DNA of 64,000 nucleotides. It comes from an uncultured Candidatus Saccharibacteria bacterium. GTDB lineage: Bacteria > Patescibacteriota > Minisyncoccia > Phycocordibacterales > JAKFXT01. The DNA lies in contig CAYLPX010000003.1 in NCBI GenBank assembly GCA_964385825.1, positions 37,559 to 101,558 on the forward strand, given 5' to 3'. Each line of letters begins with the position of its first letter. Position 1 is the stretch's first letter. The translations under genes and the position numbers were made by a program. Below are positions 53,998-61,247 of the stretch, in pieces. Under the pieces are notes generated by a model. It searched no databases. It was not told the origin of the DNA and was given only the letters and a program-made list of their open reading frames with translations.

Positions 53998-54025
53998 GAA
54001 AAAGGCCGGATGTCACCGTCCGGCC
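53998..54025 (-). terminator. Rho-independent terminator of the island-1 ORF
   Basis: ggccggatgtcaccgtccggcc (7-bp perfect GC stem) preceded on the plus strand by gaaaaa (a T-run on the minus strand), 18 nt after the ORF stop. Confidence 0.5.
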
Positions 54026-54042
54026 GACCAGCCCCACAACGT

Positions 54043-54264
54043 TCATCCCAGGGCTGCTGCTGTGGCATCCTCGCGGAGACCATGTTGCCTGCCGTATTCC
54101 TCATGCTGGAGGCTACGGTCTTTCCGCGCCTCCCTGAGCGCCAAGAGGAACGCCGTCCTATCTGCAAGGGTCCCGAACTTCAGGGTAATCCTGAGACCGG
54201 TTTCCTCCACAAAGTCGACATCCGGCGGCAAGTTAATCACCGCGGGGCCAGTTTCTTGGTTCAT
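54043..54264 (-). CDS. Small GC-rich ORF P1 (73 aa, unknown function) with strong SD
   Basis: MNQETGPAVINLPPDVDFVEETGLRITLKFGTLADRTAFLLALREARKD... Upstream is CCTAGAGGAGAGTGTCATG (GGAGA, 6 nt, ATG). Codon usage (CTC, CGG, GCG, CCG) is unlike neighbouring genes. Confidence 0.4.
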   Translation of the reverse strand: MNQETGPAVINLPPDVDFVEETGLRITLKFGTLADRTAFLLALREARKDRSLQHEEYGRQHGLREDATAAALG

Positions 54265-54299
54265 GACACTCTCCTCTAGGGTGGGTTCTGATCAATACA

Positions 54300-55183: not shown

Positions 55184-56605
55184 TCACTCTTCATCTTCCA
55201 AAATAGTATATTGATCTACCTCCTCACGAGTACGTCTCACGTACACCACAGCCCCTGAAACCACTCCACAAAAAGCCAATACTCCCATGAGCCAAACCCA
55301 TGTTTTAGACTGATCTTTTTTGGTCTCTTTATCTTTGGGCACTACCTCTTGTGACTCCAGTGCATTTACTACAGTTGCTACATTACTTGAAGAAATAGTT
55401 TTACTTTTAGCTTGTATTTTTGCTAAAGCATTAGAAGTATTCGCTACGGATGCTTGTATTCCTATAGTTCTACTCGGCACAGGAAGGCCACTCGCATAAA
55501 AAAGAGTAGGTGTCATGTTTCCTAAAAACTGACTAACACTGTTGGCAATTTTTATAGTCTTATTTGCCCCAATGAGCGTTCCACTCGGGACTAAGAACTT
55601 TGTATCGCCCGCTTCTAATTGGAAGCGTGAAATATCAAGTTCATTTGTTCCATTATTTTTTATCTCAGTATACCCCTCTTTCCCAGGTATAAACTGTGAA
55701 ATGCTAAGTGTAGGATCTACTACTTTTATGAGTACCCTATCCCCCTGCGAATATTCGCCCGATGTCACGTCAAGGGTAACAATATACTCTCCCAGAAAAT
55801 GATACGTGTGAGCTACCTGCCTTCCCTCCCTAACTTCCCCATCACCAAAATTCCAAACAAAATGGGCATTTGGCAACGGTTCTTTATTAACCCCAAGTGC
55901 GCTGCCCACAAAAACAGTCTCGCTCCCTAAAAGAGTGGACCTATCCTTGCCTGCATCAGGAAAAATTTGTTGTTCGGTTTTATAGTGGCTAGCAACAACT
56001 TCACCACTTCCCCCGCCTAAAGAAGTTGAGTTATTGCTTGAGGTACTGGTAGTATCAGTAGAAGTTGTAGTAGTACTCGCAGGCGGAGTTATACCGGGAC
56101 CTGAAGTATTCATGGCTCCAGGAGTTGGGTTCCCACTTTTAAAACCGCCCCCATTTCTATTCAAACTCATACCATCCCCCGCGCCACCCGTATCACTACT
56201 ATATGAAACTGTATCCATATCAGCATCTCCACTACGAAGTACCAATGTCTCGCCAGTATTTGAAAGCGAAAAAGAACTATCAAAAATAGTTCCGCTAAAC
56301 CCAGGATTATCTGCTAGAAACTTAGACGGGGTATCGGCTACCACCGCATAACTATTCGCAGGGACTACCGCAGAACCCTGGCTTACTTCGAGCTTATGAT
56401 TAGTTTCTGCCTCACGCAGTGTCCACTTAGACATATCTACCGCCTCTCCTCCATCATTGTAAAGCTCTATCCACTCTCTGCCGGTGTCAGTCCCCGGAAG
56501 ATCGTACATGATTTCATTAATCAAAACACTCGCTCCGGCAAACTTGAAAAACAAAAAATAACAAAGAAAAATAGAGAATACGCGTATACCCTTAATTAGT
56601 TTCAT
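55184..56605 (-). CDS. Surface protein with lamin-tail domain (LTD) and PKD domain, N-terminal signal peptide and C-terminal TM anchor
   Basis: LTD signature VLINEIMYDLPGTDTGREWIELYN. PKD-like FVWNFGDGEVREGRQVAHTYHFLGEYIVTLDVTSG. Ser/Thr-rich linker. C-terminal TM WVWLMGVLAFCGVVSGAVVYV. Start set at Met 56605, which gives a canonical signal peptide; the ORF-track start is 56653. Confidence 0.6.
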   Translation of the reverse strand: MKLIKGIRVFSIFLCYFLFFKFAGASVLINEIMYDLPGTDTGREWIELYNDGGEAVDMSKWTLREAETNHKLEVSQGSAVVPANSYAVVADTPSKFLADNPGFSGTIFDSSFSLSNTGETLVLRSGDADMDTVSYSSDTGGAGDGMSLNRNGGGFKSGNPTPGAMNTSGPGITPPASTTTTSTDTTSTSSNNSTSLGGGSGEVVASHYKTEQQIFPDAGKDRSTLLGSETVFVGSALGVNKEPLPNAHFVWNFGDGEVREGRQVAHTYHFLGEYIVTLDVTSGEYSQGDRVLIKVVDPTLSISQFIPGKEGYTEIKNNGTNELDISRFQLEAGDTKFLVPSGTLIGANKTIKIANSVSQFLGNMTPTLFYASGLPVPSRTIGIQASVANTSNALAKIQAKSKTISSSNVATVVNALESQEVVPKDKETKKDQSKTWVWLMGVLAFCGVVSGAVVYVRRTREEVDQYTILEDEE

Positions 56606-58487
56606 CATGCTCAACATGAAGCATAGCGCGAAGTTTATCTTCAGGAATTTCATTCACCACTCTTCCTACTTCTTCTTTAGAAGTAGTTAAGTTTTCCCTA
56701 ACTGGTTCTTTAGTTTCTTCTCCACTCTCCCCATCATCCATAACTATTTCTTCCTTTTTCTTAAGTGACGCCAGAACTGCAGCGAGAGCTTGCTTATTAG
56801 CGGTATTAGTATTCTGTCGGCGAGAACCTTCTTCCCTCCGCCCTTCCACAGGGGGCCGATCTCTTTTCACCTCTTCTTTTTTTTCTGCCCTGGGTACTGA
56901 TACTTGAGGCACAGCTTCCGGCGCCTTATGCGTCTGTGTTTCTTTAACCACAGGCTTCTCCTCTTGGTGTTCTTCGGGAATAGTGGCCCCTACAACACTT
57001 GCCAACGTTTGACGAAGCCCTTCAAGATGAAGATGTGAGCCAACTTCCTTTATTTTTTCCTCAACCACATGACTTAAGGTTTCGTGGTTTTCCTTTTTTG
57101 GTCCTGCTTTTCTATCCTCTCTTCGTGGATGCTCGCGCCCCTCCTGTTGTCGCTCCTCAAATTTATTCTCCTTCTTCTCTCCCTTTGGCGGTACGCTTGT
57201 ACTTAATGTCTGCTTTACAATATCCTCCTCCACGACGCTACGCTTTTCACCAAACTGCTCTTGTGAAGTGCGAATTACTTCTTCTTTATATGAAATAACT
57301 GGCTTTGCAACTGGGGGCATAGTAACAGCAGAAAAAGGTTGCGAGCCCACTCCATCAATCATGAGCTTGAGGTATATTTGCGCGAATCCAAGATTCACAA
57401 AGTCTTCTGCGATAAATGTGGGCATGAATTCTTTCTCGAAAATCTCTGCATCGAATGGTCCCACCCGAAATACAATCATGGTCCCCACGTTACCAAAAAT
57501 AGCTGCTCGTACCTCCTCTGACATTTGTTCAATGTATTGATGCGCCACTGTGAGGTTTAATTTGTACTTACGAGCTTCTGAAAGAATGTCAGCAAAACTC
57601 TCATTAGCAAAAGACTGGAACTCATCTACATAGAGATAAAAATTAGGAAGTCGTGCCATCCGTGATTCTGGTACATCAGCGCGACTCATAGCTGCTAGAT
57701 AAATCTTAGTAATGAGCATGCTTCCCAAAAGGTTGGCATTGCTCTCTCCTACACGACCTTTAGAAAGATTGATGATCAGAATTTTTTTCTCGTCCATCAT
57801 CCTTCGAAGATCAAAAGAAGATTGTGGCTGGCCAATAATATTACGAATGAGAGGATTACTGGTGAACTGCCCCACCTTGTTTTGAATAGCCGGTGTCGCT
57901 TCTGCGGCAAATCGATCGGTGTACTTTGCAAACTCATCTACCCAAAAAGACTTCACTGTCGGATCAGTTATATTATCCACCACTTTTTTACGGAAATCCT
58001 TGTCAGAGAGCATCTTGTTAATAGCAAGAAATGTAGCTCCTGGATACTCAAGTAGAGCAAGGAGTGTATTGGAGAGAATGTACTCCATACGAGCACTCCA
58101 AGCATCCACCCAGATTTTCTTAAAGGCGCTCATAAGCCCCGATACCACTAAATGTCGCTTATCTATACCAACATCTTCCATCACATTGAAAGCAATCGGG
58201 TACTCCATATCAAAAGGAGCAAAGTAGAGTACGTCCTTGATGCGGTGCTCTGGTACGTAATCAAGTAGGAGTTCTGCTGTCTTGCCGTGTGGATCTATAA
58301 AAGCCAGCCCCTCACCATTCTGAATATCTTGAATGGCCATGTTTTCAAGAAGTGTAGACTTCCCCATCCCCGTCTTACCAATAACATACGTATGACGAGT
58401 TCTGTCTTTCGCTTTAATACCAAAAGGTACTCGACGATTGCGAGCGTCTGTAGTTGCAAAATAGGTTATGCGATTTTCATCAGGCAT
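56592..58487 (-). CDS. TraG/TraD/VirD4-family (type IV secretion coupling-protein-like) soluble P-loop ATPase with long charged C-terminal tail
   Basis: Walker A GKTGMGKST and IDPHGK (cf. TrwB/TraD ..DPKG..). Walker B YLYVDEFQ. About 250-aa E/K/R-rich low-complexity C-terminus. Start set at ATG 58487 (MPDENRITYF...); the longer ORF-track extension runs into GC island 2. Confidence 0.5.
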   Translation of the reverse strand: MPDENRITYFATTDARNRRVPFGIKAKDRTRHTYVIGKTGMGKSTLLENMAIQDIQNGEGLAFIDPHGKTAELLLDYVPEHRIKDVLYFAPFDMEYPIAFNVMEDVGIDKRHLVVSGLMSAFKKIWVDAWSARMEYILSNTLLALLEYPGATFLAINKMLSDKDFRKKVVDNITDPTVKSFWVDEFAKYTDRFAAEATPAIQNKVGQFTSNPLIRNIIGQPQSSFDLRRMMDEKKILIINLSKGRVGESNANLLGSMLITKIYLAAMSRADVPESRMARLPNFYLYVDEFQSFANESFADILSEARKYKLNLTVAHQYIEQMSEEVRAAIFGNVGTMIVFRVGPFDAEIFEKEFMPTFIAEDFVNLGFAQIYLKLMIDGVGSQPFSAVTMPPVAKPVISYKEEVIRTSQEQFGEKRSVVEEDIVKQTLSTSVPPKGEKKENKFEERQQEGREHPRREDRKAGPKKENHETLSHVVEEKIKEVGSHLHLEGLRQTLASVVGATIPEEHQEEKPVVKETQTHKAPEAVPQVSVPRAEKKEEVKRDRPPVEGRREEGSRRQNTNTANKQALAAVLASLKKKEEIVMDDGESGEETKEPVRENLTTSKEEVGRVVNEIPEDKLRAMLHVEHDETN

Positions 58488-58550
58488 GAAAAAAAGAAAT
58501 GAACGTAAGTACCTAAAGTATAGTCTAATTTGAAGTAGTTGTCTCCAAAT

Positions 58551-58576
58551 GAAAAGCCCGCAGCCGAAGCTGCGGG
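58551..58576 (-). terminator. Rho-independent terminator of the island-2 ORF
   Basis: cccgcagccgaagctgcggg (8-bp perfect stem, cgaa loop) preceded on the plus strand by gaaaag (T-run on the minus strand), 18 nt after the ORF stop. Confidence 0.55.
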
Positions 58577-58594
58577 TTCCGAAACACCAAGGCC

Positions 58595-58819
58595 CTACTG
58601 CGGCCGCATGGGAACGTACGCGCCGTTCCTGAAACACCCCTTCGTGAAATTCGTCACCGGCATTGCGCGGAGCTCCGCCTCGGCAATGCCAGCCGTCGTC
58701 GGATTACCGCTGAACCGCCGCCTTGCCCGGCGCAGCGCCACCTTCTTCTTGTGGAGCGTAGCGCCATTCACCGGCCGCCGGTTTTGCTTTCCGTCGTTTC
58801 CAGGTTGCTTCAAGGGCAT
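58595..58819 (-). CDS. Small GC-rich ORF P2 (74 aa, basic, unknown function) with strong SD
   Basis: MPLKQPGNDGKQNRRPVNGATLHKKKVALRRARRRFSGNPTTAGIAEAELRAMPV... Upstream is CCTCTAGGAGACTTACATG, the same GGAGA-N6-ATG geometry as P1. Confidence 0.4.
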   Translation of the reverse strand: MPLKQPGNDGKQNRRPVNGATLHKKKVALRRARRRFSGNPTTAGIAEAELRAMPVTNFTKGCFRNGAYVPMRPQ

Positions 58820-58901
58820 GTAAGTCTCCTAGAGGAACAATGCAAAACCCCCATGGTTTCGCATCGCGATATGGTAGCAGAAGACCTACACCTACACAAG
58901 T

Positions 58902-59171
58902 CTACAGCTCTTCTTTTTGGGTAACCAAAGGCTCTGTAACTCCTTCGCCTGGAGTCTCCACATGAGTTACTCCGCCAACTACCTTTTTCATTTTTTTACC
59001 ACCAACACTAGTTGTCTTCCTTTTTCCATGCCTTTCTCTGTAGCTAATGTACGCAATTATTACCCCAAAAATGATATAGAAAGGATTTTTCCAGGCATTA
59101 GGGATAGAAACAAAGGGGGTGGCTAACACCACAATACCTATGGCCAATATAAAAACGAGATTCTTGCTCAT
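58902..59171 (-). CDS. Small membrane protein (89 aa)
   Basis: Two TM helices, then a basic/Gly-rich tail. Confidence 0.4.
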   Translation of the reverse strand: MSKNLVFILAIGIVVLATPFVSIPNAWKNPFYIIFGVIIAYISYRERHGKRKTTSVGGKKMKKVVGGVTHVETPGEGVTEPLVTQKEEL

Positions 59172-59271
59172 AAACCTAGTATAAAATAATTAATCATTTT
59201 TTCCAATCTTACTATTACCCACCGTATAATTGTGTATTATTCAACCTGTACGATACAATTATTACATATAT

Positions 59272-59871
59272 ATGTTTCCTCTCTTTAGACCCTTTAGAAA
59301 AAAGACCTCAGAACGTGGCTTTACTTTAGTGGAACTCATGGTTGTAGTAATGATTGTAGCTATTATTGCAAAAATAGTACTTTCGTCAGTCAACCAAAGC
59401 CGAGCTATAACACGCGATAAAATAAGAAAAGATGCCTTAGTCCAACTTAAAATGGCACTAGAGGCTTACTTTGACGCTAATGGCTCATACCCAAGTACCG
59501 GTGATACCTATAATGCGAGCACCAATACATGGACACTTACGTGGTACACCTCAGAACCAGGATTCCCCAACCTTTCAAATGGCCCAGGTAATAATGGAAT
59601 TTGGATTCCCGGGTTAGCCCCTACGTATATATCTGCGCTCCCCCGTGACCCCGATAGTTCGAAAGTGGGACCAGGTGTTTGTACATCACTTACCAACCCA
59701 AAAGCTAGTTACCTGTACACTTCAGATGGACGTCATTACTCAGTTGGCTCAATCTGTTCTGGTGAAACTGGTTTTAGAATCACTGATCAATTCGCTATCG
59801 ATACGCCAACCATTCATCGCTGGCAATACATGTGGACCATCTGTAATGATCGAATTTCCTGCGCTTGGTAA
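59272..59871 (+). CDS. Type IV pilin / pseudopilin-like protein (prepilin N-terminal methylation motif)
   Basis: GFTLVELMVVVMIVAIIA: a class III signal peptide with Gly at -1, Phe at +1 and the conserved Glu at +5. Start set at ATG 59272. A TATAAT hexamer lies at 59225-59230. Confidence 0.65.
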   Translation: MFPLFRPFRKKTSERGFTLVELMVVVMIVAIIAKIVLSSVNQSRAITRDKIRKDALVQLKMALEAYFDANGSYPSTGDTYNASTNTWTLTWYTSEPGFPNLSNGPGNNGIWIPGLAPTYISALPRDPDSSKVGPGVCTSLTNPKASYLYTSDGRHYSVGSICSGETGFRITDQFAIDTPTIHRWQYMWTICNDRISCAW

Positions 59872-59872
59872 T

Positions 59873-60550
59873 TTATTGGAGTCCCTCAACCATTACCACA
59901 AACTCCCCTTTTTGTTTTATTTCATTATCCTTGAAATAGGTAAAAACTTCTTCAGCACTTCCACTAACTATTTCCTCAAACATTTTTGTGAGCTCTTTAG
60001 CCACTACTACTTTTCGAGTAGGCTCTACTGCTTCCTCTAATTTTTCTAATGTTTTTATGAGACGATGCGTTGATTCATAAAAAGCAACCGTTCTCCCTGA
60101 TATTGCTATTTCTTTAAACAATGTTTCTCTCCCTTTCTTATGTGGTAAAAATCCCAAAAAAAGAAATTGATCTGCCGGAATGCCCGAAATAGATAGTGCA
60201 CTGATAAGCGCTGAAGGTCCGGGGATAACTACCACTTCAATACCGGCCTCGCGAGCTGCCGCCACAAAACGAAATCCTGGATCAGAAATCGCAGGAGTCC
60301 CCGCATCAGTCACCAGGGCGATACTTTCATATTCATCAAATAGCCCAGTAATCTCTTCGCTTAATTCTCCCTCTTTGTGCGCATCCAATCTTTTGGTTTT
60401 TGTTTTGATTTCATAGCGATCTAACAACTTCTTCGTCACTCGTGTGTCTTCGCAGAGTATAAGATTTACCTCCTTAAGCACACGAAATGCCCGAAGAGTA
60501 ATATCCTCCATATTCCCTATAGGGGTCCCAATTACATAAAGTCTTAACAT
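59873..60550 (-). CDS. rsmI: 16S rRNA (cytidine1402-2'-O)-methyltransferase
   Basis: Tetrapyrrole-methylase fold with the RsmI N-terminus (YVIGTPIGNMEDITLRA...LCEDTR). Confidence 0.85.
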   Translation of the reverse strand: MLRLYVIGTPIGNMEDITLRAFRVLKEVNLILCEDTRVTKKLLDRYEIKTKTKRLDAHKEGELSEEITGLFDEYESIALVTDAGTPAISDPGFRFVAAAREAGIEVVVIPGPSALISALSISGIPADQFLFLGFLPHKKGRETLFKEIAISGRTVAFYESTHRLIKTLEKLEEAVEPTRKVVVAKELTKMFEEIVSGSAEEVFTYFKDNEIKQKGEFVVMVEGLQ

Positions 60551-60555
60551 CCCCG

Positions 60556-60583
60556 AACTCTATACAAATAAAACAGCGGGGGC
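60556..60583 (-). terminator. Rho-independent terminator of P3a
   Basis: gcgggggcaagcccccgc (7-bp G/C stem) with a T-run on the minus strand (plus-strand aaataaaaca), 13 nt after the stop. Confidence 0.5.
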
Positions 60584-60595
60584 AAGCCCCCGCAC

Positions 60596-60859
60596 CTATG
60601 GAGTAGCATCGAGCTCCGCCCTCATTCCGGACGATAACCCCCCACTCCCACCGCCGTTCATGAGCCTCCCCCAATCCATAGCAAAACCATGAGCTACGAA
60701 CTTATTGCCATGTGTTTGATCAAAAAACTTTCGAACAACAGTGTAGAGGGGCGAAGAACAATCAAGAAGCGCGTAGCCAGACCCGCGTTCGTCATCGCAG
60801 ATCCGCACTAAGTTATAGGGAGACTCCGGTCCCCATGAGATTCCTGGAGCATTTTTCAT
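60596..60859 (-). CDS. Small GC-rich ORF P3a (87 aa, Gly-rich C-terminus, unknown function)
   Basis: MKNAPGISWGPESPYNLVRICDDERGSGYALLDCSS...GGGSGGLSSG. A G-rich SD-like stretch (AGGGGAACAGCATG) precedes the start. Confidence 0.35.
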   Translation of the reverse strand: MKNAPGISWGPESPYNLVRICDDERGSGYALLDCSSPLYTVVRKFFDQTHGNKFVAHGFAMDWGRLMNGGGSGGLSSGMRAELDATP

Positions 60860-60968
60860 TGCTGTTCCCCTGCAAAATTATCTTTTTAAAAATTAGCACA
60901 TGAAAACATAATTGACCACAAGAAGGAGTGCCCAGTATAGTATGAATCCAGTTCTTTTGGAGATTGCA

Positions 60969-61196
60969 ATGGAAGAATCCATCCTCGCCGACAGGGTAAC
61001 CCCCTTTCAGCGAAAAGTGGCAAACCTCGCCGAACTCACCGTGTTTTTTGGTGGAGCCAAGGTTTGGACAGCGTGGGAGCCAATCCTTGAGGGCCTTGCG
61101 CTTTCACATGGCGTCGATCAAGAAGAAGCCTCGGCCTGTTTCTTCCTAGCGGTCGCAAGCTTCAGCGAAAACGGCCTCCCCGACGAAGCCCTCTAG
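60969..61196 (+). CDS. Small GC-rich ORF P3b (75 aa from MEESIL..., unknown function)
   Basis: Start chosen at ATG 60969 because it is preceded by GGAGATTGCAATG, the same GGAGA-N5-ATG geometry as P1 and P2. The ORF-track start is 60912 and an alternative ATG lies at 60942. Confidence 0.35.
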   Translation: MEESILADRVTPFQRKVANLAELTVFFGGAKVWTAWEPILEGLALSHGVDQEEASACFFLAVASFSENGLPDEAL

Positions 61197-61215
61197 GGCT
61201 TCTGCCGCCCAACCT

Positions 61216-61247
61216 GCGCCCGAGAAACTCGGGCGCTTATTACTTTA
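61216..61247 (+). terminator. Rho-independent terminator of P3b (abuts the murC stop)
   Basis: gcgcccgagaaactcgggcgc (9-bp perfect stem) followed by ttattacttta. Confidence 0.5.

Follow-up and report, generated by a model that had tools for sequence, protein, structure and literature searches.

The window analysed here is a 64,000-nt stretch of DNA from an uncultured Candidatus Saccharibacteria bacterium (assembly GCA_964385825.1, contig CAYLPX010000003.1, positions 37,559 to 101,558 of the forward strand). Immediately upstream of a gene for a VirD4-like ATPase, the window has a GC-rich island that carries a minus-strand open reading frame (ORF), P2. P2 is a real, self-contained gene which encodes a very basic protein of 74 amino acids (aa) and is confined to two closely related Patescibacteria lineages. 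Comparison of the loci shows that the P2 unit is an inserted moron-like cassette of ~350 bp, located between the ATPase gene and the gene for a small membrane protein, TM89 (Table 1).

Coding status of P2

The open frame of P2 alone is not beyond chance. A closed ORF of at least 74 aa occurs in 36% of 2000 dinucleotide shuffles of the island, and an ATG ORF of at least 60 aa with a Shine-Dalgarno (SD)-like motif occurs in 4.7% of 2000 shuffles. Besides the sense frame, two antisense frames and that of an apparent ATPase extension are open across the island, as expected because GC-rich DNA is poor in stop codons. The case for a real coding gene comes instead from codon-position bias, the ratio of nonsynonymous to synonymous differences per site (pN/pS), in-frame indels and a syntenic orthologue.

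The P2 frame is open, with no stops, in seven distinct sequences from the two lineages. Within the lineage of the window there are 6 variable sites, of which 4 are synonymous third-position sites. The second lineage has 17 variable sites; 12 are in third positions and all 12 are synonymous. When both lineages are pooled, 16 of the 23 variable sites are synonymous third positions (binomial p=4e-4). The pN/pS within lineages is 0.17-0.28 for P2, compared with 0.18-0.21 for TM89, 0.22-0.65 for a nearby methylase gene and 0.03 for the ATPase gene, which demonstrates purifying selection on P2. Between the lineages the pS of P2 is 0.77, which is saturated (neighbours 0.73-0.80), and the pN is 0.29 in codons 1-34 and 0.56 in the remaining codons. 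There are two internal indels between the lineages, 3 nt each. The second-lineage orthologue is syntenic and 65 aa long, and it keeps residues 1-34 and the basic charge; the protein has a net charge of +13 or +16, depending on the lineage. Apart from the P2 frame, the one frame that stays open in both lineages is its antisense mirror, in which the third-position changes of P2 are first-position changes. These comparisons show P2 to be a moderately constrained protein-coding gene with a conserved N-terminal half, of which residues 1-34 are under purifying selection, and a fast-evolving C-terminal half.

Distribution of P2

The identical P2 protein and gene order are found in six independent Logan assemblies of sequencing runs, which excludes an assembly artefact. 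A seventh assembly (L007) has a 97%-identical variant. Homologous arrangements of the locus are also present in JGI, ENA and GTDB assemblies. Among 185,579 species genomes, L008 is the closest relative, with an ATPase of 80% identity; a GC island in the syntenic position, immediately before its ATPase gene, carries a 65-aa ORF beginning MPLKQPGRHGKKDRPRGGGTHHRERVALKRWRRSHG. Four protein variants of the orthologue from this second lineage were found in JGI and ENA assemblies, and the orthologue is already labelled 'hypothetical protein' in the JGI data.

No P2 homologue was found beyond these two lineages among ~15 billion proteins. A word-indexed search of 5.8 billion clusters returned only the cluster of P2 itself, to which a profile search added the cluster of the 65-aa orthologue. 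An exhaustive phmmer search of 1.84 billion representatives also returned only P2's own cluster. Scans of JGI metagenome contigs and IMG/VR with back-translated P2 gave no relatives, and tblastn of P2 against 80 ATPase loci detected no distant copies (none in the other 79). A metagenome-contig scan for the 5' hairpin of the unit gave six chance matches on unrelated GC-rich contigs, none with a P2-like ORF. For the island DNA, blastn found no match in a phage collection and a single chance match of 25 nt in a plasmid collection (E=0.02).

Anatomy of the P2 unit

A sequence-only reading of the window had placed a second GC island, with a 74-aa ORF, upstream of the VirD4-like ATPase gene, and both are there; every sequence feature that it listed was found where it had been placed. 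The island (58531-58850) has a GC content of 0.61-0.68 in 100-nt windows, against a mean of 0.414 (~41%) for the whole window, and its overall GC is 0.63 against about 0.41 around it. The translation of the ORF is exactly as that reading quoted it. The protein is highly basic as described, with an isoelectric point (pI) of 11.84 and 16 Lys and Arg residues versus 3 Asp and Glu residues. The GC contents of the first, second and third codon positions (GC1/2/3) are 0.59/0.53/0.78. Predicted tryptic or Glu-C peptides of P2 include FSGNPTTAGIAEAELR and AMPVTNFTK.

Table 1. Features of the P2 locus; positions are those of the window unless a relative's locus is named.
Feature	Position	Strand	Remarks
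TM89, 89-aa two-helix membrane protein, upstream neighbour	58902..59171	-	apparently leaderless; homologues widespread in relatives
Putative P2 promoter	58871..58899	-	-35 TTGTGT 58899..58894, 17-nt spacer, -10 TACCAT 58876..58871
Conserved hairpin of the 5' untranslated region, GCGAAACC-AUGGG-GGUUUUGC	58842..58862	-	8/8 pairs kept in both lineages
SD sequence AGGAGA	58825..58830	-	5 nt before P2 ATG; GGGAG at same place in second lineage
P2 coding sequence (CDS)	58595..58819	-	74 aa and stop, pI 11.8; orthologues P0001-P0006
Intrinsic terminator	58547..58576	-	stem-loop 58576..58557, CCCGCAGC-UUCG-GCUGCGGG; U-tract 58556..58547
ATPase promoter GAGACA, 17 nt, TATACT	58517..58545	-	between P2 terminator and ATG 58487
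Artefactual 50-codon upstream extension of the ATPase	58488..58637	-	absent from homologues
TrwB/VirD4-like ATPase, 631 aa, starts MPDENR (MPDENRITYF...)	56592..58487	-	Pfam domains; homologue starts
Empty site	L033 5704-6000; L040 5059-5450		TM89 homologue directly before ATPase

Each part of the unit can be followed in the second lineage. The hexamers of the putative promoter are kept there (TTGAAT, 17 nt, TAGCAT), while the spacer has diverged, and they may form a weak sigma-70-like promoter of P2's own. TM89 and P2 are separated by an 82-nt spacer, and co-transcription of the two is possible because there is no U-tract terminator between them. The 5' hairpin has a loop of AUGGG or AUAGG, and two of its pairs switch from G-U to G-C or A-U, or the reverse, between the lineages. 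It occurs once in the window and is otherwise confined to loci that bear P2; it may act as a 5' stabiliser of the mRNA. The SD geometry matches that of P1, a second small gene of the window, as had been claimed (AGGAGA, 5 nt and ATG for P2; GAGGAGA, 5 nt and ATG for P1 at 54264). The terminator lies 18 nt past the P2 stop with a T-run behind it, and the 'cgaa' loop given for it in the sequence-only reading is the plus-strand form of UUCG. Its stem has 8 bp, 7 of them G-C pairs, and is identical in both lineages, while the loop differs. The stem-loop is followed directly by CUUUUCAUUU.

Insertion, composition and origin

The P2 unit is an insertion into an ancestral TM89-ATPase junction, since two more distant relatives (L033 and L040) have both genes adjacent to each other. 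The ATPase start comes 57 nt (L033) or about 140 nt (L040) after the TM89 homologue in these relatives, and no ORF lies between. The equivalent gap in L030 is 345 nt and is partly N-masked. The neighbourhood of P2 is chromosomal, with genes for MurC, an RsmI-type methylase, a pilin, the ATPase and sugar enzymes. Terminal inverted repeats, target-site duplications and repeats common to the four islands of the window were searched for and none were found; therefore, transposon- or integron-type mobility is unsupported.

The cassette differs from the host genes in its GC content at all codon positions, its strong SD and its strong GC-rich intrinsic terminator. Its GC3 is 0.78, compared with 0.28-0.43 in 58 native genes (the ORFs of at least 120 aa in the window). 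An SD-like motif precedes only 5 of these 58 genes. In many native genes a TAnAnT box lies no more than about 10 nt from the ATG, a sign that native mRNAs may be leaderless or have very short leaders. P1, P2 and probably P4, another small ORF, are SD-bearing exceptions; the 16S anti-SD sequence is not in the window. A literature search on SD or leaderless usage in Patescibacteria found no paper.

The GC3 of P2 is still 0.60 in the second lineage. This persistence is a puzzle, since neutral decay toward the genomic value of 0.35 should erase a foreign signature. RNA structure does not account for it, as judged by RNAalifold and CDS folding. It is possible that the GC richness is kept by selection on mRNA stability or translation, by recombination-linked GC-biased conversion or through replacement from GC-richer donors.

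Recombination at the locus is visible in the L007 assembly. TM89, P2 and the 5' end of the ATPase gene (L007 1-2156 against window 58458-60700) are 97% identical to the window (pS 0.07-0.08). For the adjacent methylase gene, identity to L007 falls to 80% (pS 0.46), and the intervening pilin gene is unalignable. This mosaic points to a recent homologous recombination of the TM89-P2-ATPase block between diverged lineages. The pilin itself is a type IV pilin-like gene with an N_methyl motif (59272-59871, plus strand) between the methylase gene and TM89. It is absent from the second lineage (L008 5283-5329) and has an unalignable version of 178 aa in L007; therefore, this position is a hypervariable pilin slot.

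The downstream ATPase gene

The ATPase matches TrwB_AAD_bind, DUF87, T4SS-DNA_transf and TraG-D_C above the Pfam gathering thresholds. Its apparent ORF can be read from a GTG at 58637, in a frame that takes in the 3' end of P2 and then the terminator and the ATPase promoter. The sequence-only reading had called this extension an artefact, and the homologues and gene callers agree, since both start at MPDENR. On six contigs the gene callers give this start and a protein of 631 aa. Alignments to the 80 homologous loci listed begin at query residue 1-6, and the ATPase ORF of the closest relative opens at the same ATG, while those of more distant relatives open at the equivalent MDP... The extension is open because GC-rich DNA lacks stop codons. 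A true start at GTG 58637, with the GC segment as the N-terminus of the ATPase, would fit the open frame; however, that reading, which the earlier note had set out as the finding that would overturn its own, has no counterpart in the homologues, where the GC segment is not a conserved N-terminus. It would also take the protein through a terminator and a conserved promoter, and it can practically be dismissed. Both hexamers of the ATPase promoter and a TAGACTATACTTTA block are invariant between the lineages, while the spacer has diverged; the conserved block reads GAGACAA...TTAGACTATACTTTA.

Some further properties of this gene were noted. The ATPase is similar to TraD/VirD4 coupling proteins and has a weak resemblance to CedD, an archaeal ATPase for DNA import; all of these matches are far below the NCBIfam cut-offs. 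It has no obvious N-terminal membrane anchor and has a long Glu/Lys/Pro-rich C-terminal tail. The gene is conserved across at least 535 Patescibacteria genomes, and there is an overlap of about 60 nt between its 3' end and the called start of a gene with LTD/PKD domains.

Alternative explanations of the island

The island could be the gene of a GC-rich structured small RNA in which the ORF is incidental. The frequency of ORFs of this length in shuffled islands and the three further open frames would agree with this, and the best-conserved parts of the unit are RNA elements, namely the 5' hairpin and the terminator. The whole unit also folds somewhat better than its shuffles (z = -2.25); this value is due to the two terminal hairpins, which account for the fold. 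The P2 CDS alone folds like shuffled sequence (z -0.92 and -0.67). In an RNAalifold analysis of six sequences, the supported structure is limited to the 5' hairpin and the terminator. Inside the unit, pairs are disrupted in one of the two lineages and no helix is shared between them; the covariation term is positive (+1.43). A search of the whole window with Rfam at gathering thresholds gave no match, a search of the local region at an E-value threshold gave only sub-threshold noise that aligned to the terminator, and ARAGORN found no tRNA or tmRNA. The concentration of variable sites at synonymous third positions, the low pN/pS and the in-frame indels are the marks of a protein gene, so an RNA gene with an incidental ORF is quite unlikely. 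A dual-function RNA at the island is possible.

The position of P2 also invites the reading that its ORF and terminator form a leader-peptide attenuator which gates read-through into the ATPase gene, since the terminator begins 18 nt past the end of the ORF and has that gene directly behind it. Against this, 74 codons are far more than classical leader peptides have, and the distance from stop to stem varies, from 18 nt here to about 33 nt in the second lineage. There is no conserved alternative antiterminator pairing; one candidate, in which the 3' arm of the hairpin pairs with codons 10-14 (I2), was rejected for want of conservation in the second lineage. Arrest motifs would be expected at the C-terminus, which is the least conserved part of P2, and a conserved promoter stands between the terminator and the ATPase start. 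An attenuator is therefore very unlikely. The remaining alternative, that the island is a decaying foreign GC-rich fragment, or carries instead the plus-strand ORF of 94 aa at 58539..58823, and that the P2 frame is functionless, is more improbable still. The composition is foreign to the genome, and the 94-aa ORF does span the island with third codon positions that coincide with those of P2 in the window. This open plus-strand frame has stops in the second lineage, however, and the antisense frame that is open in both lineages would turn the observed changes into first-position changes. The island has survived saturating synonymous divergence in both lineages with the P2 frame intact and constrained. 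Nor was a source found, with no phage match for the DNA, only the 25-nt stretch in plasmids, and no relative in P2-guided viral and metagenome scans.

Possible function of P2

The sequence-only reading had taken P2 as possibly nucleic-acid binding and had named Arg-rich DNA- or RNA-binding folds as a thing to look for. Family searches neither support nor contradict such binding; they gave P2 no match to a described DNA- or RNA-binding family (RHH, HTH, ARM-type or nucleoid proteins) in Pfam, PHROGs, NCBIfam or a PDB sequence search. At E<=1, Pfam, PHROGs and NCBIfam gave no match for P2, its orthologue, P1, P3 or P4, and the best P2 match in the profile search of PDB sequences has E=0.74, which is noise. 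An AlphaFold2 model built on a three-sequence alignment has a mean predicted local distance difference test (pLDDT) score of 60, which is low confidence. It has a disordered N-terminus, helices at residues 18-35 and 40-52, and a small hairpin. The predicted helix at residues 18-35 is basic and Lys/Arg-rich and contains HKKKVALRRARRR. The strong positive charge is retained in both lineages. P2 may be a nucleic-acid binder that acts through this conserved helix, although this is a tentative suggestion that is doubtful on balance. A ribbon-helix-helix (RHH) fold for residues 15-52 was considered and rejected, as the residues that would form the strand and the second helix are Gly- and Pro-rich in the second lineage, and no match to an RHH family was found. 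The ATPase is independent of P2, because nearly all relatives carry the ATPase without it.

The cassette model as a whole, which joins the anatomy, the coding status, the weak own promoter and the nucleic-acid binding, is considered somewhat probable. Under this model P2 would be transcribed from its own weak sigma-70-like promoter and possibly also by read-through from TM89. The mRNA would open with the stable 8-bp hairpin and would be translated by way of the canonical AGGAGA SD, which is unusual since the genome's own genes almost never carry one. The strong terminator with its UUCG loop would end transcription and insulate the ATPase gene, itself served by a separate conserved promoter. 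The P2 protein may bind nucleic acid through its basic helix and act with the DNA-translocase-like ATPase or with its own mRNA hairpin.

Several points weigh against this model. The putative promoter is weak, with 7-8 of 12 consensus matches, which is under the scan threshold. The selection statistics come from 23 polymorphic sites and one deep comparison, with two shallow lineages, and the coding status rests on comparative evidence. The structure model is of low confidence, and a pLDDT of 60 is too weak for a fold search. The charge of P2 is weak evidence for nucleic-acid binding, because any GC-rich ORF encodes Arg, Ala, Gly and Pro; these make up 43% of the residues of P2 and 22-24% of those in two native proteins that were checked. 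The cassette model also leaves the lasting high GC3 under saturated synonymous divergence unexplained.

Comparison with known systems

The original definition of the moron is reportedly that of Hendrix and colleagues. Phage morons are independent transcription units inserted between neighbouring genes (PMC3594210). The P2 cassette is like them in having one small ORF, its own terminator and apparently its own promoter, and also in having a composition unlike its flanks and a location between genes that are adjacent in relatives. It is unlike them in its chromosomal neighbourhood and in the absence of a PHROG or phage DNA match. It is also unlike a recent transfer, as the cassette is as old as the split of the two lineages. 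It is moron-like in anatomy but is not classed as a moron, since it is in no phage or prophage genome.

P2 also resembles the small ORFan proteins of bacteria in being less than 100 aa, fast-evolving and limited to a narrow clade. The genes of bacterial ORFans usually have a higher AT content than the genome that carries them; P2 and its neighbours P1 and P3 are much more GC-rich. Two further comparisons concern the basic charge. The lambda N protein is an arginine-rich-motif peptide that binds the boxB RNA hairpin, and P2 is likewise short. Its Lys/Arg-rich helix is conserved, and its transcription unit also contains a small conserved hairpin and has a terminator right after the ORF. However, P2 has no detected similarity to any family, its hairpin loop is not boxB-like and the downstream gene has a promoter. 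TraM with TraD and TrwA with TrwB are pairs in which a small basic DNA-binding protein is the accessory of a coupling-protein ATPase. P2 is likewise small and basic and adjoins a TrwB/TraD-like ATPase with a match to TraG-D_C ('TraM recognition site'). It differs in having no Pfam ribbon-helix-helix or TraM match and in being absent from nearly all relatives that have the same ATPase.

Other GC-rich small genes

The window has three other small GC-rich genes. P1 lies in GC island 1 (54004-54280, minus strand) between an SDR gene and an epimerase gene. Its ORF (54264..54043) encodes an acidic protein of 73 aa with a GC3 of 0.67 and is followed by a terminator at 54025..54004; it has no homologue in the 5.8 billion clusters. 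In the second lineage the same slot has a 75-aa ORF which BLASTP cannot align to P1. DNA-level conservation is nevertheless seen in the terminator, the 3' flank, the SD region and a C-terminal ..Y...HGL motif; therefore, this is an orthologous cassette in which the body of the ORF has become nearly unrecognisable.

P3 and P4 are small, GC-enriched units that stand back to back at 60576-61236. P4 (60859..60596, minus strand, 87 aa, terminator 60593..60576) is found in the lineage of the window only. P3 (60942..61196, plus strand, 84 aa, terminator 61216..61236) is 67% identical in the second lineage; it is apparently leaderless, with the promoter TTGACC, 18 nt, TATAGT.

Many other Paceibacteria have a non-homologous GC-rich small ORF with a terminator just upstream of the same ATPase gene. 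The loci are L011 and L013 5675-5920, L059 5657-5881, L012 160-381, and the region before the ATPase start in L068, L066 and L051; the small ORFs of L011 and L013 belong to one family. Of the GC islands in about 850 kb of related loci, 36 fall on small ORFs and just 2 on tRNAs. Units of this kind look like a recurrent feature of Paceibacteria genomes.

Implications

The comparison fixes the ATPase start at 58487 and shows that a small gene is real where annotation pipelines say only 'hypothetical protein'. P2 is cleanly delimited by a putative promoter, 5' hairpin, SD, ORF and terminator, with an empty site in relatives. Small lineage-specific proteins are a large and functionally unassigned fraction of Patescibacteria genomes. 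As a single locus, P2 opens no long-standing question.

One wider reading is that P1, P2, P3 and the unrelated GC-rich ORFs in the same slot form a moron-like class whose GC richness is actively kept, with the Arg-rich P2 protein binding its own hairpin. This would require selection or biased gene conversion to act despite saturating divergence. The binding would then serve autoregulation or a modulated termination ahead of the ATPase gene. This reading as a whole is unlikely. P1, P2 and P3 are still GC-rich in the second lineage after synonymous saturation, in a genome that is AT-rich and poor in SD sequences. If this retention of GC is general, it has implications for how the reduced genomes of episymbionts gain new small genes and keep them.

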